Source of the DNA: an uncultured bacterium
Lineage (GTDB): Bacteria; Krumholzibacteriota; Krumholzibacteriia; JACNKJ01
Assembly (NCBI GenBank): GCA_964410395.1
Contig: CAYPGS010000018.1
Span: 1-64,000, forward strand
Direction of reading: 5' to 3'
DNA length: 64,000 bases
The notes under the pieces were generated by a model. That model did not search any database. It saw nothing but the letters and a program-made list of their open reading frames with translations, and had not been told where the DNA came from. The first letter of the stretch is position 1. Each line of letters begins with the position of its first letter. Positions 3,761-47,495 of this stretch are shown here, piece by piece. The position numbers and the translations under genes were made by a program.

Positions 3761-6700
3761 CTATTTCAGTAGCACCATTTTCTGGTGCAGCTTGATCTCG
3801 CCCGCGCTCAGCTTGGCGAAGTAGACGCCCGAGGACACCTGCTCGCCGGCCTGGTCGCGGCCATCCCACTCGTAGGCGTGGATGCCCTCGTCCAGCGTAC
3901 CGTTCACGAGCACCCGCACCAAACGTCCGGCGGGGTCGTAGACGGCCAGTCGCGCCTTGCCCGTTTCGGGAAGGCCGAAGCTGATCGAGGTCTTCGGGTT
4001 GAAGGGGTTGGGATGGTTCCGCGAGAGGAAGACGCTCGCCGGAACCACTTCCACCTCGGTACCCGTCTCGTTGACGATGAGCGTCACCGGCACCGCGATG
4101 GAGGGACCCGCGTTGTTCACCACGAGGACCTCGGCCTCGTAGGTACCCTCCACCATGTCGGTGGCGTCGAGGGTCACGCGGATGTCGTCGGTCTCGCCGG
4201 CCTGGAGCTGTCCCTCGGTGATGTCCAGTGAGATCCAGTCCAGGGAGTTCTGGATGGTGAAGAAATCGTCGCTCTCATCGAAGACCGAAGGATCGCCGCT
4301 GTCGGCCACCTTCACCTTGCAGTTCATGTTGCCCGGCGCGTCGACGTTCCACTGGAAGCTGCCGTCATTCGCGTCCACATCGCTGGCGATGAGGTCCCAG
4401 TTGCCCAGGATGCCCCGGCGCAGGTAGATGTCCACCAGTCCCGAACCGCCGCCGGCCGAGAAGCTGATGGTCTGCTGCTCGCCGACGGTCCAGACCTCGC
4501 CGCCATTGGGCGCGAGAACGTTGACCGCGGGACCGTCCATGACAAGGGTGAAGTAGTCCTCGATGTAGTGGGGATCACCGCCGTAGATGTCGCCCTGGAT
4601 GCCGTAGAGCAGATCCAGGTCGCCGCTCACGTCGGGGAAGCTCACGTTGATGCTGGCCGTGGCGGTTTCACCGTCGTAGATGTTACCCCAGCCCCCATCG
4701 TGATCGAACCAGGTGATCAGAGCCCCGTCGCCCGTACCGCTGAAGGAGAGGCTGCCGCTCGGGCCGACGAGATCGGTACCGCTGTTGACCACGGCTCCGG
4801 GCGGGAAGTCAAGGGTGACCTCACTGAGCCACTCCACGTCCGAACTACCGTTGAAGACCGTGACGTTGAAATCCACCGTGGAGCCGACCACGTAGGTGGA
4901 AGGATCCAGCGACAGCCAGGAGCCGGCCACGCTGCGCGGCAGGTTCGGATCGATGATCTCAAGGGAATAGTTCAGAACGGATCCCTCTTCACCCTGATTG
5001 CTCACGTGGAGCATCTCCAGACTCGTGCCGTCCGGAGGCAGGATCTTGGAAATCGACTCGGGCGTCACGACGCAGCTTGGCAGAGGCACCGAGGCCACCG
5101 GCATGAAGGCGATGGCCCGGCCGGTGGTCAGGGTCGCCGCGCTGCTCGGGTAGGAGTTCCAGTAGGTATAGGTCAGGCCGTCGGTCCTGTCCTTGTTCTG
5201 GATGCCCACCGTGCCGTAGCCGTTGGTGCTGTCTGTGTTGTTCACGGTCTTGTACTGCATGAGCAGTATGCCGTCGCCCGTGCTCGTGGGATGGTAGGCC
5301 GGATCCAGAAGAATCAGCTCGAAGTCCTGGAAAGCGCTCGTGGCGCGGTTCTTCAGATTGTCCCACTGGATGATGTAGCGGTGGTTGGCCTCGTCGTACC
5401 AGGTGCTGACGATGTTCGAGGCCTGCTGGTAGAGGTCGTCCCAGAAGACGGCGATGAGATTGTCCGCGCCTCCCGCGCAGGGCAGGTTCCAGTTGCGGTA
5501 GAAGTTCATCTCGGTCTCGCCCATGGCCACCCAGCCATTGGAGCAGATGCTGATCTTGTTGTAGGGCTCGCCGTAGTAGCTGAACTCGAAAGGCAGTTCG
5601 ACGGTCTTGGTGTCGTCCTGTTCCCAACCGTAGTCGCCAAGTCCGAGATCCGTGCCCGGGCCGCCCTGGTTCGGGTTGACCTCCACCCAATCGTAGACCG
5701 GCGCGTACTCGTAGCCGGTGTCGGTGTTATCCACCGCGTAGTAACCATAGCTGTCCGGACCGGTGGGATCGCCCGCGCCGGCCGATCCCACTGTCAGCGA
5801 GAAGTTCACCACATCGGTGGCGCCACCGTTGAAGGTGAGATCCATGGTGAAGGCGGCCTGGTGTCCGGGAACGCAGTCGGAGGTCACGGTGATGCTGAAG
5901 GGGTCGGAGCTGTTCTCGCCGGAACCGCCCATGGGCAGGCTTCCGAAGCCGCCGCTGGGATCGTTGATGACGATCCAGGAGCTGCTGCTGCTGAGCTCGG
6001 CGCTGATGGCCGTTCCGGGAATATTCCCGTCGTTGCGGATCTGCACGCTCAGGGTGCCGGACTCGCCGGGCTCGGGATCGCCGCCGGCGAAGGTGAAGTC
6101 CTCGTAGGTGAAGGCCGCGCTCTGCACGTCGAGCTCCACCAGCGAGGTCCAGGACTGGAAGCCGTCGCTGGCGACCAGATCCAGTTCGATCGTGTGGCCG
6201 CCCGGCGCGTCGCTGGCGATGAGCACGTCGAAGTCCTCGGCGCACCAGACCTCGGCGCCGGAGGCTATGTTGCCGAAGGTCTCCGTGTCGTCCACCACCG
6301 TGACATAGGGATCGGCGCTGGAGAGGGTTGCGCTCACGTTGTTGGCGGTGCCGGTACCCAGATTGCGCAGCGACAGCGGCAGCTCGATGGCCTCGCCGGG
6401 ATTCACGCGATTGTCGCCGTTGCCCTGGCTGTCTCCGCTCATGTCGTCATCGATCTGAATGTTCTCCAGGGCCGCGTAGGCGCTCACGGAGCCGAGGGCC
6501 AGGGATCCCTGGTAGGGCATGTGATTGTGGGACATGACCGTCACGTAGAGCGTGCCGGAGCCGGCGGCCTCGATGGGCAGATTCACCTGTCCCGCCGCGT
6601 TCGTGTAGCCGGTCACACGGATGTCGCCGTCCTTGAAGAGAGCCACGCGCGCGCCTTCGAGAGGTCCGCCGGGATTGCTCACCGTCACGGGCACCGAGCC

Positions 6701-8464
6701 CGCCCCCGTGGGTAGGTTCGCAGGATGCACCACGGTGAGATCCTCGGGGTAGGCCGACCAGAGCTGCGTGACCGGATCGCCCATGAGGTTGTTCCACATG
6801 GACCAGATCTCCACCGTGTTCGGCTGCGAGATCTGGTAGTTGTGATAGAGCTCGTACTTGCCGCGGGTGTGGGCCGATCCGGTGCGGTGGTCCTCGCCGT
6901 TGATCGCGCCGTGCCAGGTGCCCATGTAGTAGCAGTTGTTGTAGCGGGTATGGGTGCCGATGGTGGCCGTGCCCACCGAGGCCACGCCGCCGCCGTTGGG
7001 CGCACGCAGGAAGGCCTCGGAGCGACAGTTCGAATCGCTGGCGAAGCTGCCCGTGTCGCAGGTCACGATGATGGAGAAGGGCAGTTCCTTCTGGTTGCCC
7101 AGGGCCATGATGTGGGCCGAACTCATGCCGCTCATGTGCCAGTAGCCGCGGTAGCCGAAGACGCTCAGGCCCTGGTTGATGCTGGCGGTCATGGCGCTGA
7201 GGAAGTTGCCGCTCCAGATGGTGTCGATCTGCGTGTAGTTGTGCTGCAGCAGCTGTTCCTTGAGCCACTGGTTCACGTAGATGGTGGTGATGCCCGAGCT
7301 GGACGGATCGCCCGTGAGCCCCGCGCGGGTGAACCAACCCGGATCGGTGATGGGAGGATCGGTCTCGTAGGTGACGATCTTGCTGACCACGTCCTCCAGC
7401 TCAGTGGTGCTGGTCACCGAGAGACGTCCGATGTGCACGTCGGCAAGCACATCGCCGCCCACGATGGTCGAGTAGTAGTGGTCGCCTTCGCCCCCGTAGC
7501 CGGAAACGCTCTCGAAGAAGCAGGGAACGGTGATGTAGCCGCTGGCGTCGCCGACCAGGGTGACATGCTCCAGAGGAGGATCGGCGGTGGCGTAGAAGTC
7601 GTCGATGTAGTCTTCCACCTGCCAGTTGTTGCTGCCGGTCTCGTCGGTGGAAACGGCCACCACATTGTAGCCCTGTTTCTCTCGCCATTCGATCAGGGGG
7701 CCCAGCCGGGACAACACGCCGCTGGTGTTGTCGTAGATCATCAGGTAGGAACCGGGCCCGACCTCGGTGACGCCCTCGCGGTAGTAGCCGGAGTCCTCGT
7801 AGTTCAGGACCATGTCCTTGTAGAGCAGGTGGAAGGACTCGGGAATGAACTCCGCGGGCTGAACCGTTTCGCTCGCGAACTCGATCTCGATCTCCATGCT
7901 GCTGGCCACCCGGACCTCCCTGCTCACCGGATCGTATCGCACGGGATTGATGCGCATGGCCGACACGCTCAGGCCGCGCATCATGCCGGGATCGCCGACC
8001 TCCACGTCGGGTGCGACATCGAGGCTGGGAGTCAGGTAGGCGCTTTCTTCCATGACGAAACGCTCGCCATCGTCGGGCTGCACGGGGAAGAGTCGCAGAT
8101 CTGTTAGCACCTGTTCGTTTCGCGACAGCACATTCACCCTGGCACCTGAACCTGCGGGCAAGGCGATGAGCTTGCTTATCACCGGCAGACCCGGATGTCC
8201 GTCGGCGCCGCGGATCCCGCCTCCGGGGATGCTGAGCGCGTCGAAGATCTCGCCGTCCGCCTCGAACTTCTCGAGGTTGAGCGCATCGAGTTCGAAGGAC
8301 ATCCGCAGTCCGTTTTCATCCTGCGACAGGATGCGGAACTCGGGTGCTGACGCAGCCGCGCCGCCTTCGACATCGAGCCGGTGGAGCTGCACTTCGGCGG
8401 CGGCACCAAGCGTGAACAGGCAAAGGGATACCATGGATAGAATCAGGGTGATCGGCGAACGCAT
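3761..8464 (-). CDS. Peptidase C25 (gingipain-like) giant secreted cysteine protease with FlgD-Ig/T9SS-type CTD
   Basis: 1567-aa ORF. Signal peptide MRSPITLILSMVSLCLFTLGAAAE. N-terminal region resembles the gingipain propeptide. Candidate catalytic His (GYRGYWHMSG) and Cys (IIVTCDTGSFAS). C-terminus is NPFNPKTSISFGLP...GVYFAKLSAGEIKLHQKMVLLK. GGAGG SD. Confidence 0.8.
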   Translation of the reverse strand: MRSPITLILSMVSLCLFTLGAAAEVQLHRLDVEGGAAASAPEFRILSQDENGLRMSFELDALNLEKFEADGEIFDALSIPGGGIRGADGHPGLPVISKLIALPAGSGARVNVLSRNEQVLTDLRLFPVQPDDGERFVMEESAYLTPSLDVAPDVEVGDPGMMRGLSVSAMRINPVRYDPVSREVRVASSMEIEIEFASETVQPAEFIPESFHLLYKDMVLNYEDSGYYREGVTEVGPGSYLMIYDNTSGVLSRLGPLIEWREKQGYNVVAVSTDETGSNNWQVEDYIDDFYATADPPLEHVTLVGDASGYITVPCFFESVSGYGGEGDHYYSTIVGGDVLADVHIGRLSVTSTTELEDVVSKIVTYETDPPITDPGWFTRAGLTGDPSSSGITTIYVNQWLKEQLLQHNYTQIDTIWSGNFLSAMTASINQGLSVFGYRGYWHMSGMSSAHIMALGNQKELPFSIIVTCDTGSFASDSNCRSEAFLRAPNGGGVASVGTATIGTHTRYNNCYYMGTWHGAINGEDHRTGSAHTRGKYELYHNYQISQPNTVEIWSMWNNLMGDPVTQLWSAYPEDLTVVHPANLPTGAGSVPVTVSNPGGPLEGARVALFKDGDIRVTGYTNAAGQVNLPIEAAGSGTLYVTVMSHNHMPYQGSLALGSVSAYAALENIQIDDDMSGDSQGNGDNRVNPGEAIELPLSLRNLGTGTANNVSATLSSADPYVTVVDDTETFGNIASGAEVWCAEDFDVLIASDAPGGHTIELDLVASDGFQSWTSLVELDVQSAAFTYEDFTFAGGDPEPGESGTLSVQIRNDGNIPGTAISAELSSSSSWIVINDPSGGFGSLPMGGSGENSSDPFSITVTSDCVPGHQAAFTMDLTFNGGATDVVNFSLTVGSAGAGDPTGPDSYGYYAVDNTDTGYEYAPVYDWVEVNPNQGGPGTDLGLGDYGWEQDDTKTVELPFEFSYYGEPYNKISICSNGWVAMGETEMNFYRNWNLPCAGGADNLIAVFWDDLYQQASNIVSTWYDEANHRYIIQWDNLKNRATSAFQDFELILLDPAYHPTSTGDGILLMQYKTVNNTDSTNGYGTVGIQNKDRTDGLTYTYWNSYPSSAATLTTGRAIAFMPVASVPLPSCVVTPESISKILPPDGTSLEMLHVSNQGEEGSVLNYSLEIIDPNLPRSVAGSWLSLDPSTYVVGSTVDFNVTVFNGSSDVEWLSEVTLDFPPGAVVNSGTDLVGPSGSLSFSGTGDGALITWFDHDGGWGNIYDGETATASINVSFPDVSGDLDLLYGIQGDIYGGDPHYIEDYFTLVMDGPAVNVLAPNGGEVWTVGEQQTISFSAGGGSGLVDIYLRRGILGNWDLIASDVDANDGSFQWNVDAPGNMNCKVKVADSGDPSVFDESDDFFTIQNSLDWISLDITEGQLQAGETDDIRVTLDATDMVEGTYEAEVLVVNNAGPSIAVPVTLIVNETGTEVEVVPASVFLSRNHPNPFNPKTSISFGLPETGKARLAVYDPAGRLVRVLVNGTLDEGIHAYEWDGRDQAGEQVSSGVYFAKLSAGEIKLHQKMVLLK

Positions 8465-8633: not shown

Positions 8634-9851
8634 ATGACGCCCTTTCTAACCGAAGAAAACCTGAAGTGGAGAGACAAGGCCCGCGAGATCGCCGAGAAGG
8701 TGGTCAGACCCCTGGCCGCGAAATATGACGAGAAGCAGGAGTATCCCTGGGAAGTGAAGGACGCCATGGCCGAGGCCGGACTCCTGGGCGTGTGGATTCC
8801 CAAGGAGTACGGCGGCGAGGGCGCCGGAGTGCTGGATCTCTGCCTGGTCACCGAGGAGCTCAGCAAGGCCTGCGGCGGCATCGGCGTGGCCTTCGCCGTG
8901 AACGCCCTGGGCAGCTTTCCGATCATCCTTTCGGGCACCGAGGAGCAGAAGCACCACTACCTGCCGCAGATCGCGCAGGGTGAGAAGCTCATCGCATTCG
9001 GGCTCAGCGAGAAGTTCGCTGGATCTGACGCGGGAAGCCTGCGCACGCGGGCGGAGAAGAGCGCTGGCGGCTGGACCATTAACGGTGAGAAAAAGTGGAC
9101 CACCAACGGCGGCATCGCCGAGATCTACACGGTCTTCGCGGTGACCGATCCGGAGAGCCAGCGCGCGCGCATCTCCGGATTCATCGTGGAGAAGGACGAT
9201 CCCGGTTTCTCCATCGCCAAGATCGAGGACAAGATGGGCATCCGCGCGGTGCCCGTGGTGGAACTCGATTTCGAGAACTGCGAGGTACCCGAGGATCGCC
9301 TGCTCGGCGGCAAGACCGGCCAGGGTTTCAAGCAGGCCATGATGACCCTCGACCGCGCCCGTCCCGGCGTGGCCGGCCAGGGCGTCGGACTCGCCCAGGG
9401 CGCGCTGGATTACGCCGCGGTCTACGCCAATCGTCGCAAGCAGTTCGGTAAGAGCATCGGCAGCTTCCAGATGATCCAGGGAATGCTCGCGGACATGAGC
9501 GCCCGGGTCGAGGCCGCCCGCTATCTGGTCTACGCCGCGGCGCGCAACATCGACATGGGCGCGAGCAACATCAGCGCGCTGGCTGCCCAGGCCAAACTCT
9601 TCGCCACCGACACGGCCATGAGCGTGAGTACCGACGCGGTGCAGATCTTCGGCGGCTACGGTTTCATGAAGGACTATCCCATCGAGAAGTACATGCGTGA
9701 CGCGAAGATCACCCAGATCTACGAGGGCACCAACCAGGTGCAGCGCATGGTCACGGCCCGCCACGTGCTCAAGGGCGCGCGGGACCTGAAGCACCTCGAG
9801 GAGTACATCCCCAACGAGGTGCAGCGCGAGGTGGATCTCGCTGAACTGTGA
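8634..9851 (+). CDS. Acyl-CoA dehydrogenase (short/butyryl-CoA type)
   Basis: 405 aa with the typical ACAD layout: ...AFGLSEKFAGSDAGSLRTRAEK..WTINGEKKWTTNGG...QIFGGYGFMKDYPIEKYMRDAKITQIYEGTNQVQ. AGGAG SD. Confidence 0.9.
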   Translation: MTPFLTEENLKWRDKAREIAEKVVRPLAAKYDEKQEYPWEVKDAMAEAGLLGVWIPKEYGGEGAGVLDLCLVTEELSKACGGIGVAFAVNALGSFPIILSGTEEQKHHYLPQIAQGEKLIAFGLSEKFAGSDAGSLRTRAEKSAGGWTINGEKKWTTNGGIAEIYTVFAVTDPESQRARISGFIVEKDDPGFSIAKIEDKMGIRAVPVVELDFENCEVPEDRLLGGKTGQGFKQAMMTLDRARPGVAGQGVGLAQGALDYAAVYANRRKQFGKSIGSFQMIQGMLADMSARVEAARYLVYAAARNIDMGASNISALAAQAKLFATDTAMSVSTDAVQIFGGYGFMKDYPIEKYMRDAKITQIYEGTNQVQRMVTARHVLKGARDLKHLEEYIPNEVQREVDLAEL

Positions 9852-9874
9852 ACTGAGGACTGAGGACTGAGAAC
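9844..9874 (+). repeat. Left arm of a perfect 31-bp inverted repeat (heptamer TGA ladder)
   Basis: AACTGTGAACTGAGGACTGAGGACTGAGAAC is the exact reverse complement of 10334..10364. TGA at 9849, 9854, 9861 and 9868 covers all three frames. The first TGA is the ACAD stop codon. Confidence 0.9.
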
Positions 9875-9879
9875 TCCGA

Positions 9880-10266
9880 TCAGGGAAAGGTAGGCTTTCG
9901 GTCCACCTTTCTTTTTGGCCGCAATGATTTATGCAAGCCGATGGTCTGCTTTCGAACCGAGACAAGAGCTTTTTCAACCTGGTCGACTCGGTCTTGATCC
10001 AGGAAGCAAAGCCTCTCCGCAAGCAGTACAAGGGTCTCAACTTCATTGACCGAACCCATCGCTATGTCGAGAAAGCGTCGAAACTCAGCTTCTGTATCGC
10101 GCCCGGCCCCTTCAGCGATATTCGAGGGAATTGATACTGCTGCTCTACGAATCTGATTTTGCATCCCGAATTTCTCGCTTCTTGGAAGTGCACTGCTAAC
10201 AGAGTAGACAACTTCAACGAGATCCATCGCCCTTTGCCAAACTGTATACTCTTTGTATTTCCTCAC
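9880..10266 (-). CDS. Four-helix-bundle protein (23S rRNA intervening-sequence protein / Avd family)
   Basis: 128 aa. YTVWQRAMDLVEVVYSVSSALPRSEKFGMQNQIRRAAVSIPSNIAEGAGRDTEAEFRRFLDIAMGSVNEVETLVLLAERL is the family signature. GTG start. Confidence 0.85.
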   Translation of the reverse strand: MRKYKEYTVWQRAMDLVEVVYSVSSALPRSEKFGMQNQIRRAAVSIPSNIAEGAGRDTEAEFRRFLDIAMGSVNEVETLVLLAERLCFLDQDRVDQVEKALVSVRKQTIGLHKSLRPKRKVDRKPTFP

Positions 10267-10333
10267 TTAGAGACCCCCCGCTAAGAACCCTTCAAGCTTG
10301 CGCCAGTATTGAACCATCTTTGATTTTGCCTTC

Positions 10334-10364
10334 GTTCTCAGTCCTCAGTCCTCAGTTCACAGTT
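10334..10364 (+). repeat. Right arm of the 31-bp inverted repeat
   Basis: GTTCTCAGTCCTCAGTCCTCAGTTCACAGTT is the reverse complement of 9844..9874. Confidence 0.9.
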
Positions 10365-10368
10365 GTTC

Positions 10369-10405
10369 TTGACACAGCCCAATTGAACTAGTAGACTAGT
10401 TCAAT
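10369..10405 (+). promoter_or_regulatory. Promoter with overlapping palindromic operator of the gntR-SPFH operon
   Basis: -35 TTGACA (10369..10374), 17-nt spacer, -10 TAGACT (10392..10397). The palindrome ATTGAACTAGT-ag-ACTAGTTCAAT (10382..10405) covers the -10. A further ACTAGT lies at 10411. Confidence 0.45.
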
Positions 10406-22647: not shown

Positions 22648-22736
22648 CCTAAAGAATATTCGGTCAGGCAATTGCGCTCAAGCCGATCTCCCTGCTACAC
22701 TATTCAAGATTGTACACGTGTACAGGGAGGTGCGGA

Positions 22737-23416
22737 ATGCGGATCCGTTTCGCTGCCATCGGCTTGCTCATTCTTCTCGGCCCGGCCTGGGCCAGACCCT
22801 CACGAAAGATGGATTCATCAATCCCGGCTCGGGGGATCCAAATTGGCGAGATGTTCGAAGCCTGGTCAACGACGGAAGCTTCGAGTTCGGTGAGTGCGAG
22901 TCGGGAAGCGAGTGGACCTGCTGGAGCACAACTAGTTGCGAGTGGATCGTCAACCCGATCGATACGTGGGGTTATCCGGCCTACGATGGAATCAATGCCG
23001 CTTGGTTAGGAGGATTCTGCGATGGAAAGGCCAACAACAACTCCTATTGCCAGGAGTATTTTAACGCCTGCATGCATCTGAACTTCTATTTTTCAAGTTA
23101 CATAAACTCTGGATGCAGCCAGTTCACTATCACGATGCGCGGAAACACAGTCCATTCCAGGACAATGGAATTCGATGACCACAACTATGGAACTTGGGAG
23201 ACCGCGGCTTCCTACTGGGGACTAATCGATATATCAGCCTACATCGGCATGACCTCGGAACTGTGCTTTTTGTGGACCGCGTGCGGGGAAGACACAAACG
23301 GCGACGGCTACCCCGATGAGGACAATGACAACATACTCATCGATTGTATCTACGGTTCTGAGTGCCAGTTGCCAACCGAAGTCTACAGTTTCTCTTTAGT
23401 CAAAACCCTGTACTAA
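22737..23416 (+). pseudogene. Cys-rich secreted protein (paralogue of 23507..24145), -1 frameshifted after the signal peptide; tail ...FSLVKTLY
   Basis: AGGGAGG SD, ATG 22737 and signal peptide MRIRFAAIGLLILLGPAWA are in frame 3. The homologous mature domain (DGSFEFGECESGSEWTCW...) is in frame 2 (track ORF 22718..23416). Confidence 0.65.
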
Positions 23417-23506
23417 GATTATCACGATGGAAACCAGTTGTATGACTTCTACAGAGGAGACATCCCATACCATCGTGAAGACTCTGTACTAGTGTTGGGA
23501 GGAGCA

Positions 23507-24145
23507 ATGAATCCTTCAAAAGCGATTCTAATCCTACTAGTCGTCACGACTTTTCCTACGGCAGCCGCCTCGACTGTGCAACGAGACTGGACCGTCCCCG
23601 ACTACAGCTTCGAGAATGGTCTCTGCGGTGAAGGCAGCGACTGGACCTGCTGGAGCAGCACCGACTGCCAGTGGATCATCGACGCGGAAGATGTCTGGGG
23701 AGTGCCCGCGGTGCATGGCGAGAACGTCGCCTGGCTGGGCGCCTACTGCAACGGCCTCGCCAACAACAACTCCTTCTGCCAGACCCTGTTCATCCCATGC
23801 TTCCAATATGACTTTCACTGGATGGCCTACATCATGGCGGCCTGTGGCACTCTGACCATCACCCTGGACGGCGAGGTCCGTCTTCAGCACACGATGAACG
23901 AGTCCGACCACAGCTACGGCGAATGGCAGAAAGCTTCCGAGACCTGGGGCAGCATAGACACCTCCTACGAGTATGGAGGCTATGCCACCTTCTGCATCGA
24001 GTGGACCGCCTGCGGAGGAGATCTCGACGGCGACGGATGGCCCGACACCCTGAACGACAGCGTGATCATCGATGTGATCCAGGGCGATGGTTGTGAGGTG
24101 CCCGTCCAGACACTGAGCTTCTCGGCGGTCAAAAGCCTCTACTAG
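23507..24145 (+). CDS. Cys-rich secreted protein, tail ...FSAVKSLY
   Basis: GGGAGGAG SD and ATG 23507. Signal peptide MNPSKAILILLVVTTFPTAAA. Aligns along its whole length with 22737..23416 (DWTCWSSTDCQWII / EWTCWSTTSCEWIV; ANNNSFCQ / ANNNSYCQ). Confidence 0.75.
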   Translation: MNPSKAILILLVVTTFPTAAASTVQRDWTVPDYSFENGLCGEGSDWTCWSSTDCQWIIDAEDVWGVPAVHGENVAWLGAYCNGLANNNSFCQTLFIPCFQYDFHWMAYIMAACGTLTITLDGEVRLQHTMNESDHSYGEWQKASETWGSIDTSYEYGGYATFCIEWTACGGDLDGDGWPDTLNDSVIIDVIQGDGCEVPVQTLSFSAVKSLY

Positions 24146-45872: not shown

Positions 45873-46502
45873 CTAAAGCCCTCGCAGGAAGGGGTTTGAG
45901 GCGGCCTCCTCCACGAGACTGCTGTCGGGACCGTGTCCGCTGTGAAGAACCGTGGAAGGCGGCAGCGCATCGATGATGCGCTCCTTGATCGAGCGCATGA
46001 GCGTGTCGTAGTCGCCGCCCGGCAGGTCGGTGCGGCCGATGGATCCGGCGAAGAGGGTGTCGCCGGCGAAAAGATGACCGTTCAGGCTGAGACACACGCC
46101 CCCGGGACTGTGACCCGGCGTGTGGATGACGCGCACCTCCAGCTCCCCCACCGCGACGGTTTCGCCATCGCGAAGGGGCTCGTCCAGGCGAGGAGGCTTC
46201 GCGGGCTCGATGCCATAGAGGCCACAGATCTGCTCGAGGTTCTCGACCAGGAAGCGGTCGTCCTCATGCATGCGGAAGGGGATCTCGAGACGGCTCTGCA
46301 GCTCCGCCGCGCCCAGCACGTGGTCCACATGGCCGTGAGTGTTCAGGATGCTCTCGATCTGGAGTCCATGCTGCTCGGCGCGGGCGATGAGGGTCTCCAC
46401 CTCGCCGCCTGGATCCACCACGAAGGCCTTCTTCGTCGCGGGATCGCCCACGAGGAAGGTGTTCTCCTGGAATGCGCCCACGGTGAGCATCTCGACGATC
46501 AT
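45873..46502 (-). CDS. MBL-fold hydrolase (hydroxyacylglutathione hydrolase-like)
   Basis: 209 aa. ILNTHGHVDHVLG (HxHxDH) and VIHTPGHSPGG. Confidence 0.8.
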   Translation of the reverse strand: MIVEMLTVGAFQENTFLVGDPATKKAFVVDPGGEVETLIARAEQHGLQIESILNTHGHVDHVLGAAELQSRLEIPFRMHEDDRFLVENLEQICGLYGIEPAKPPRLDEPLRDGETVAVGELEVRVIHTPGHSPGGVCLSLNGHLFAGDTLFAGSIGRTDLPGGDYDTLMRSIKERIIDALPPSTVLHSGHGPDSSLVEEAASNPFLRGL

Positions 46503-47495
46503 CTATCCTCCGATACGGGCCAGGGAATGCAGTTCGCCGTCGTCACCGTCTTCGAGACGGTGCTTCTCGGGCTTGTGCAGGAGCGCGGCGCGGATGCCCT
46601 CCTCCAGCGCGCGCTCCCAGGCCTCGCCCTCGAGAAGATGGCGCAGGGAGAAATTCTGCGCGCCGAAGAGGCAGCCGCGCATCTCGCCGCGATGGGTCAG
46701 GCGCACGCGATTGCAGTTGTCGCAGAAGTTCTCGCCCAGGGGGTGGATGATCCCCACGCGCAGGCCGTCGGACTCGCGCCTGAACATGCGCGCCGGTCCG
46801 TCGGGACCGCGGCGTTCGAGCTCCGTCCAGTCGCCGTTCTCGCTCATCCGCGCGAGAATGTCCTCGCCGCTCATTCGCCTCGTCTCGAAGAGTTCGCGCG
46901 CCACGCCCACGGGCATCAATTCGATGAAGCGAAGTCGCAGACCGCGATCGGCGGACAGGTCCAGGAAGTCCGTGAGCTCTTCGTCGTTGATGCCGAGCAT
47001 GGGCACCACGTTGAGCTTGATGGGATCGAGCCCCGCCGAGAGGGCGGCGTCGATGCCCTCGATGACGCGGGCAAGTTCCCCGCGGCCGGAGATCTCGCGG
47101 AAGCGCTCGGCATCGAGGGTGTCCAGGCTCACGTTCACGCGGGACAGCCCCGCGCGGGCAAGATCATCGGCCAGGGGCGCTAGGTGCATGGCGTGTGTCG
47201 AAAGGCTCACCTCGCCGATGCCATCGATCTTCGTAAGCCGGCCCACGATTTCCACGAGATCTTTTCTGAGCGTGGGTTCGCCGCCCGAGAGGCGCACCTT
47301 TTCGACACCCAGGCGTGCGAAAAGGGTCACCAGTCTCTCCCATTCCAGTGGGCTCAGTTCTTCCCGCGGGCCCTCGGGCAGCACGGGGCCGCCGGGCTGG
47401 CAGTAGAGGCAGCGGAAGTTGCAATAGGGAGTCACCGAGATCCGCAGGTAGCGGATGGACCTGCCGAAAGGATCGATGAGGGGGGCCAGGGTCAC
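46503..47495 (-). CDS. moaA: GTP 3',8-cyclase (molybdenum cofactor biosynthesis protein A)
   Basis: LRISVTPYCNFRCLYCQP radical-SAM CxxxCxxC, a C-terminal CDNCNRVRLT second cluster, and a GG C-terminus. GTG start with GAGGAG SD. Confidence 0.9.
   Translation of the reverse strand: MTLAPLIDPFGRSIRYLRISVTPYCNFRCLYCQPGGPVLPEGPREELSPLEWERLVTLFARLGVEKVRLSGGEPTLRKDLVEIVGRLTKIDGIGEVSLSTHAMHLAPLADDLARAGLSRVNVSLDTLDAERFREISGRGELARVIEGIDAALSAGLDPIKLNVVPMLGINDEELTDFLDLSADRGLRLRFIELMPVGVARELFETRRMSGEDILARMSENGDWTELERRGPDGPARMFRRESDGLRVGIIHPLGENFCDNCNRVRLTHRGEMRGCLFGAQNFSLRHLLEGEAWERALEEGIRAALLHKPEKHRLEDGDDGELHSLARIGG

Follow-up and report, generated by a model that had tools for sequence, protein, structure and literature searches.

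The stretch of DNA analyzed here (i.e., positions 1 to 64,000 of contig CAYPGS010000018.1, assembly GCA_964410395.1, from an uncultured bacterium of the Krumholzibacteriota; hereafter, the window) carries, between an acyl-CoA dehydrogenase (ACAD) gene and a gntR gene, a small cassette with a gene for a four-helix-bundle protein, antisense to both neighbors, enclosed by two repeat arms (Table 1). A first-pass annotation had described these arms as perfect 31-bp inverted repeats of degenerate heptamers, bracketing a low-GC interior of 459 bp whose sole gene encodes a 128-aa four-helix-bundle protein, and this description was confirmed. An inverted-repeat search found the arms to be 100% complementary over 31 nt and separated by 459 nt, giving a cassette of 521 nt in total with a 31-bp stem, while Tandem Repeats Finder resolved each arm into a period-7 array of 4.4-4.7 copies. 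The interior has a GC content of 0.488 versus a window mean of 0.632 (sd 0.039), which places it in the lowest 0.5% of 459-nt windows, so that the GC difference is significant; at third codon positions, GC is 0.48 in the cassette gene versus 0.87 in the ACAD gene.

Table 1. Features of the cassette and of its immediate surroundings (positions in the window).
Feature	Position	Strand	Description
ACAD gene	8634..9851	+	Open reading frame upstream of the cassette
Left arm	9844-9874	.	31 nt, array AACTGTG-AACTGAG-GACTGAG-GACTGAG-AAC; in the 3' untranslated region of ACAD, ahead of the terminator-like hairpin
Four-helix-bundle protein gene (PF05635 / TIGR02436)	9880..10266	-	128 aa; GTG start, where homologs start
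Terminator-like hairpin and T5	9885..9916	+	9885-9894 pairs with 9903-9911, 8-nt loop; seen in folds
Leader, right arm to GTG	10267..10333	-	67 nt; not alignable with the L120 leader
Right arm	10334-10364	.	Exact reverse complement of the left arm
gntR promoter	10369..10404 region	+	TTGACA 10369-10374, TAGACT 10392-10397; context, outside the cassette
Palindrome TTGAACTAGT-AG-ACTAGTTCAA	10383-10404		22 nt, overlaps the gntR -10 box; further ACTAGT copy downstream

The feature is real and not a product of chance. The 22-mer core of the arms (GAACTGAGGACTGAGGACTGAG) had no match in 100 dinucleotide shuffles of the window and is present, within the 64 kb, in these two arms only; likewise, no second copy of the cassette was found in the window. 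Since independent assemblies of relatives carry the same build, an assembly artefact is ruled out. The four Logan contigs (k = 31) shown for the GntR of the window (L124-L127) share one starting point, 99 nt upstream of gntR, where the right arm begins (position 10335 in the window). Such contig ends could be taken as a sign of many copies, and this idea was rejected, because the collision of a perfect 31-nt inverted repeat with k = 31 accounts for them. By the same token, perfect 31-nt inverted arms break k = 31 de Bruijn assemblies at the cassette edge, so that such cassettes would be systematically lost or split. No Rfam family was matched anywhere in the window, which places the cassette outside any rRNA gene.

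The open reading frame (ORF) between the arms, the only credible gene of the interior, matches PF05635 (23S_rRNA_IVP) over profile positions 1-104 of 106 (E 5.5e-35; 120.2 bits with a cut-off of 33.8) and TIGR02436 at 115.5 bits (cut-off 24). All 15 invariant columns of the family alignment are present in the protein, including the R-x3-S-x3-N-x2-E motif, retained as R41/S45/N49/E52. Sequence comparison moreover points to homology with solved pentameric four-helix-bundle structures (PDB 2GSC, i.e., XCC0516, E 4e-22; 2RLD, E 1.7e-5). The closest homolog among 5.8 billion proteins is P0001, from the closest relative, at 67% identity. The window's own four-helix-bundle protein is absent from that collection, though the adjacent GntR is present at 100%; the source assembly probably lacks a call for the cassette gene. 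PADLOC defence models returned 0 families for the protein at E up to 0.01. The protein also matches models of Avd, the accessory protein of diversity-generating retroelements. These matches are weak, however (bAvd PF22296, E 0.0023; NF033474 DivGenRetAVD, 23.5 bits) and fall far below the cut-offs of 40 and 80 bits, respectively, while no template/variable repeat lies nearby and none of the genes up to 6 kb away in the syntenic relative L120 matches a reverse transcriptase Pfam family, making an Avd role scarcely credible.

Metagenome contigs were scanned with the family alignment, yielding 80 unrelated loci with proteins 41-60% identical to that of the window. At least one period-7 array lay within 300 nt of the gene in 62 of the 80 loci, and on both sides in 30, the array density being 2.36 per kb near the gene versus 0.09 per kb in far flanks (27 times). 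A flanking inverted repeat scoring at least 14 was present in 41 of the 57 loci with enough flank, compared to 9.4% of cross-locus controls (medians of 19 and 8, respectively). The median arm length was 31-32 nt, matching the window, with median gaps of 40 nt upstream and 23 nt downstream of the gene. The unit varies by locus, with 36 distinct units across the survey, and the two arms vary together: among the 30 two-arm loci, the upstream unit was the exact reverse complement of the downstream unit in 17 (control 2.6%) and within one mismatch of it in 26 (control 16%). An invariant AGT core was found in 77/92 arrays, always on the 5' arm, and the 5' arm was G-rich in 94/103 arrays, as it is in the window (GC skew of +0.33). 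Gene GC was below flank GC in 61/64 loci, while still tracking host GC (r = 0.89). In the window itself, each gene end has a period-7 array of ~31 nt within ~100 nt, and the two arrays are complementary. The cassette is thus one case of a family-wide build, in which most PF05635 genes are bracketed by complementary heptamer arrays.

The pattern recurs in cultured organisms, in part with a variant layout. In Gemmatirosa, a family gene has arms of an 8-nt unit. On plasmid pPg_01 of Pseudanabaena galeata (L221), the four-helix-bundle gene (46268-46627) is located between cas6 and cas4; upstream of it are ~17 AAAAGCT units and, further out, an inverted TTTTAGC array, whereas the ~10 AAAAGCC units downstream run in direct rather than inverted orientation relative to the AAAAGCT units. 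This variant layout may explain why CRISPR surveys report the family as "cas-associated". In Xanthomonas, one of 186 GGGAATC arrays overlaps the start of XCC0516, the crystallised family member (supplement of PMC4692102).

The arm repeat itself is far more widespread than the gene. In a search for the 22-mer, >119 exact matches were obtained in metagenome-assembled genomes (MAGs), with many copies in some and with hosts among the Acidobacteriota, Chloroflexota, Verrucomicrobiota, Gemmatimonadota, Bacteroidota, Cyanobacteriota, and others. None of the 119 retrieved loci had a PF05635-like ORF within 400 nt of the array, and the arm motif was therefore rejected as a private signature of PF05635 cassettes. 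These gene-less arrays are either solitary, with 3-19 units, or inverted pairs around loops of 16-125 nt. The sharing of the 22-mer across phyla was not accepted as proof of horizontal transfer: a fixed 3-nt core leaves ~256 unit sequences, and recurrence of the 22-mer would be expected because units draw on so small a sequence space. In one of these hosts, the Blastocatellia MAG SSF51 (JAIBAN010000092.1; L070, 2300-6600), many spacers of a 28-gene tRNA array are filled by heptamer hairpins of the form (GGACTGA)3-5, a loop of 40-60 nt, and (TCAGTCC)3-5, so that those tRNAs are bracketed by complementary arrays.

The survey also bears on the ladder of TGA codons formed by the left arm (9849, 9854, 9861, and 9868). 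As had been read from the sequence, these cover all three frames, and the ACAD ORF terminates at the first of them (9849-9851). The array has in fact overwritten the ACAD C-terminus, which reads ...DLAEL* in the window and L120 versus ...DPAEVR* in L128 and L129, with the repeat supplying the final codons GAA-CTG-TGA in the former pair. An ACAD stop inside the array is typical of this repeat type: among the (GGACTGA)n arrays that run forward in other genomes, 31% contribute the stop codon to an upstream ORF of ≥100 codons (versus 5% of random positions), and MacGregor reported likewise for TAACTGA arrays (PMC4679880). Such behavior would suit arms that serve as translational and transcriptional insulators of an ordinary small gene; translational insulation is what the ladder had originally been taken to provide. 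Nevertheless, this role was not supported by the family, in which only 32/77 forward and 37/77 reverse units contain any stop; the ladder in the window is incidental because this particular unit contains CTGA. Moreover, the figure of 31% is largely a survival effect, since stop-bearing arrays survive only at ORF ends, a stop is already in place for ACAD, with a terminator-like hairpin behind it, and insulation leaves the co-variation of the arms unexplained. We therefore regard the insulator as improbable.

The history of the cassette was followed by walking outward along GntR orthologs and sampling the state of the ACAD-gntR junction, a comparison that had been recommended at the outset and that turned up occupied, remnant, and empty states alike. 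L120 (GntR 99%) is occupied by a 122-aa allele within imperfect 47-nt arms of GAACTGT/GAACTGA units. L128 (GntR 93%) is occupied by a 106-aa allele; its arms consist of 14-nt units (GGGAACTGCCGGCA), and its left junction differs. In L129-L132 (GntR 90%), the junction is empty, with a 126-nt spacer holding two AGTCTCC units and a terminator. L133 and L134 (GntR 87%) have no gene and retain three GAACT-type units, a terminator, and a minus-strand remnant of the 3' end of the gene, whereas L135-L137 (GntR 75%) have a plain 99-nt spacer that looks never occupied. A hidden Markov model search of the empty spacers for a gene remnant gave nothing significant; it was direct local alignment with a shuffle null that detected the L133 remnant (score of 56 versus a null of 25.8 +/- 3.7; 0/300 shuffles). 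The L128 arms (GCA_003934915.1; 3290-3450 and 3900-3950) comprise ~11 and ~2.5 copies of GGGAACT(A/G)(T/C)CGGCA, and this 14-nt unit contains the palindrome TGCCGGCA, so that each unit can self-fold.

By ACAD protein identity (97%), the occupied L128 is the sister of the empty L129, which shows the cassette to be an old occupant of this site that was lost at least once. As reconstructed from these junctions, it was gained before the split of the lineage with 87% GntR identity, then lost in one lineage and decayed in another. Gene orientation and arm polarity are identical in all four lineages with a cassette or remnant, the orientation of the gene relative to ACAD being the same in the window, L120-L123 (four assemblies), L128, and the L133 remnant. 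A perfect 31-bp inverted repeat around ~460 bp does have the geometry of an inverton, i.e., a phase-variable segment in which an invertase or RecA uses the repeats to flip the gene. The single orientation across these lineages and the lack of an invertase gene nearby, however, make such an inversion very unlikely.

The cassette gene has diverged far more than its surroundings. Between the window and L120, the flanking proteins are 98.0% (ACAD) and 99.3% (GntR) identical, with a synonymous divergence (dS) of 0.28 and 0.14 and a nonsynonymous divergence (dN) of 0.013 and 0.003, respectively, whereas the cassette protein is only 65% identical, with a dS of 1.5, a dN of 0.24, and a dN/dS of 0.16. 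The cassette dS is thus 5-10 times that of the flanks, and the excess divergence goes together with purifying selection on the gene. Furthermore, the leaders of both alleles are unalignable, the gene lengths differ, and similarity drops inside the arms. Together with the GC drop and the empty, decayed, and never-occupied-looking sites, this upholds the initial view that the cassette is not an ordinary gene.

Since the ratio of the cassette dN between window-L120 and window-L128 is 0.62, while the flanks predict 0.09-0.35, allele replacement with breakpoints in the arms is preferred as an explanation and, judging from these alignments, most likely accounts for the divergence between the window and L120. 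An alternative is that a resident gene mutates at a locally raised rate, i.e., that one ancient insertion descended vertically while its interior evolved 5-10 times faster, for instance owing to retro-conversion or to replication errors induced by the hairpin. The three cassette genes (65%, 54%, and 55% identity) give a tree of the same shape as that of the flanks, the best database match (P0001) comes from the closest relative, and the dN/dS of 0.16 shows continued function, all of which would fit vertical descent. The divergence between the window and L120 is nevertheless disproportionately large for a uniformly faster interior, the unalignable leaders and differing gene lengths do not fit it either, and no reverse transcriptase is found among the called genes within 6 kb in L120, for which reasons we consider this alternative unlikely.

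The same data can also be read purely at the level of DNA, with the cassette as a mobile or exchangeable unit whose arrays act as recombination or landing sites for homologous or site-specific swapping, and with the RNA stem being irrelevant. Presence, absence, and remnant states at a single junction, a raised dS with a similarity break inside the arms, and an L128 allele with other arms and another left junction next to an empty sister would all be expected from such a unit, as would the low GC across the family, the dispersal of the same kind of array without the gene in many genomes, the arms without G.U bias (see below), and the PF05635 genes reported wedged in cas operons and rRNA genes. 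On the other hand, no transposase, integrase, or invertase was found among the genes near the cassette, nor any target-site duplication (no shared direct repeat >3 nt at the cassette ends), and there is no second copy in the 64 kb. With nothing closer than P0001 in the 5.8 billion proteins, no donor allele is known, and the constant orientation and polarity in all four carrier or remnant lineages, as well as the chance expectation for a 22-mer shared across phyla, further speak against it. A cassette acting at the DNA level only is therefore a real possibility, albeit one that we find somewhat unlikely.

Instead, we favor the interpretation of the cassette as a stem-loop of the type of the intervening sequences (IVSs) in 23S rRNA genes, located outside rRNA, with the PF05635 gene in the loop of a hairpin whose stem consists of the two inverted heptamer arrays (a probability of roughly 0.6). 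The in silico fold proposed in the first-pass annotation agrees with this, since both the minimum-energy and the centroid structure computed for the minus-strand RNA (z = -4.3) have the entire cassette enclosed by the 31-bp stem. A transcript spanning both arms would form a perfect 31-bp duplex, long enough to be a substrate of RNase III, and cleavage of this duplex would release the cassette RNA from the transcripts of ACAD and gntR, with the resulting ends protected by hairpins. Insertions would as such be of little cost to the host and would do no harm inside an rRNA or operon. At the DNA level, the cassette is a long-standing and dispensable occupant of the ACAD-gntR spacer, with fast turnover.

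Several observations weigh against this interpretation. A promoter scan of the window region found no sigma-70-like promoter on the minus strand, and hence none that would put both arms into one minus-strand transcript, while a plus-strand terminator-like hairpin sits between the arms. Arm mismatches across the family have no bias of G.U over A.C (42 versus 33, p = 0.36), so that gene conversion at the DNA level, rather than selection for an RNA stem, could be what keeps the arms complementary. The concordant cassette and flank trees likewise leave room for uniform local acceleration. The window and L120 have the core the other way round from all 77 core-bearing arrays of the survey, with ACT in the 5' arm and AGT in the 3' arm, and are the only 2 such cases among all core-bearing loci; we had regarded this reversed polarity as a clean anomaly, and softened that view since the rule of a G-rich 5' arm is followed. 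Finally, for the IVS of Coxiella, the authors concluded that its protein (S23p) is probably not made in vivo (PMC4990558).

Extending the argument from the cassette to the family as a whole leads to a more speculative proposal, which we put forward with considerable doubt. PF05635 proteins and heptamer tandem repeats (TAACTGA, GGGAATC, GGACTGA, and others, including the cyanobacterial short tandemly repeated repetitive sequences, STRR) might be the two halves of one widespread system. The pentameric protein would recognize the arrays via their conserved AGT/ACT core and G-rich strand, and the gene would travel or persist with its cognate arrays. The hundreds of gene-less arrays and hairpins found across genomes, including those between tRNA genes, would then be dispersed partners, similar to the REPIN-RAYT arrangement, and an rRNA IVS would be a cassette that landed in an rRNA helix.

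To our knowledge, no function has been established for S23p/IVS proteins, nor for the 7-nt tandem repeats of bacteria, and the simple and strong statistical link found here joins these two old puzzles. It makes testable whether the protein binds the arrays, whether RNase III cuts the stems, and whether dispersed and gene-flanking units match. Array-flanked cassettes also account for the PF05635 genes that sit inside operons such as cas loci. No earlier report connecting PF05635 genes with heptamer repeats was found in the searchable literature, and one may exist beyond it.

With regard to the surroundings of the cassette, the perfect TTGACA box does start 4 nt after the right arm, as was noticed initially, yet its suggested link to the cassette was not upheld. 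Both this -35 box and the ACTAGT palindrome are kept in all relatives, and since they are also kept at empty sites, they belong to gntR. The 22-nt palindrome is probably the autoregulatory operator of GntR. The terminator-like hairpin has the orientation needed to end transcription of ACAD, and it overlaps the final codons of the minus-strand gene. In the window this hairpin is weak, with strong counterparts (a hairpin plus T-run) at the same place in L120, L128, L129, and L133; a consensus scan did not call it in the window, and the L135 spacer has no equivalent. Also adjoining the locus is a gene for a 1567-aa secreted peptidase (3761-8464, minus strand) with Propeptide_C25, Peptidase_C25, and C-terminal FlgD_ig-type domains, which is syntenic in all close relatives. 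GC also falls, to as little as 0.47, in a second patch (22718-24145), where two paralogous genes lie in tandem; their products, of 232 and 235 aa, have N-termini resembling signal peptides and share WTCW...C.W and ANNNS.C motifs. This patch (22.7-23.4 kb) was considered as another cassette and rejected, as it consists of paralogous secreted-protein genes with no inverted arms and no heptamer arrays.

When compared with known systems, the cassette shares its terminal inverted repeats, presence/absence polymorphism, and low GC with miniature inverted-repeat transposable elements and insertion sequences, but it comes without a transposase or target-site duplication, and its arms are tandem arrays that vary by locus. 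With the Avd protein of diversity-generating retroelements, it shares a homologous four-helix-bundle fold, as suggested by the weak PF22296 and NF033474 matches, but not the reverse transcriptase and template/variable repeats. In REPIN-RAYT systems, a single-copy gene has on either side a palindromic repeat of which further copies are scattered across the genome, and PF05635 cassettes resemble these in placing a small gene between inverted copies of a repeat type that is dispersed elsewhere without the gene. In contrast to RAYT, however, PF05635 is not a Y1 transposase and is without known catalytic activity, and the repeats are tandem arrays instead of single palindromes. An actual match between dispersed and gene-flanking units was seen in one genome only, i.e., that of Xanthomonas.

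Published heptamer repeats include the TAACTGA arrays of Beggiatoaceae, Cyanobacteria, and Bacteroidetes (PMC4679880) and the GGGAATC and GGGGA(C/T)T arrays of Xanthomonas and Nostoc, respectively, with 70-75 convergent inverted GGGAATC pairs in Xanthomonas (PMC4692102). Like the arms, these are intergenic arrays of 3-20 units that often abut gene ends, carry stops in all frames of one orientation, often form convergent pairs, and occur in many phyla. This literature describes the stops in all frames and the convergent pairs, reports no function, and leaves PF05635/S23 genes unmentioned (PMC4679880, PMC4692102). In contrast, the arrays of the cassette enclose a gene, whereas most dispersed arrays enclose nothing or a loop of 16-125 nt.

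The closest likeness proposed from the outset was to 23S rRNA IVSs, and this comparison was borne out more widely than originally claimed, as complementary arms are the norm for PF05635 genes and a 23S IVS of Azospirillum has them too. S23p/IVS four-helix-bundle proteins have been known from 23S rRNA IVSs since the 1990s, and two crystal structures exist. Like the cassette, the IVSs of Coxiella burnetii, Leptospira, and Azospirillum have a PF05635 ORF of ~120 aa in a loop of 400-460 nt, a long stem formed by inverted repeats of 28-36 nt at the ends, and a GC content below that of the host. The Azospirillum lipoferum 4B locus (L220) has its PF05635 ORF inside a 23S rRNA gene (Rfam LSU, 1130 bits), between arms of 36 nt that are 86% complementary and 7-nt periodic, with CAGAGGA and CGGAGGA as units. 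The Coxiella IVS, of 428-444 nt, has a 28-bp terminal stem, an S23p ORF, and a GC content below that of the genome, and RNase III cuts it in vitro (PMC4990558). Excision by RNase III has been demonstrated for 23S IVSs, whereas it would only by analogy apply to the present cassette, which lies between the ACAD and gntR genes instead of inside an rRNA gene. The IVS build itself is therefore known; what is new is an IVS-type PF05635 cassette outside rRNA, which exposes a family-wide link between PF05635 genes and heptamer arrays.

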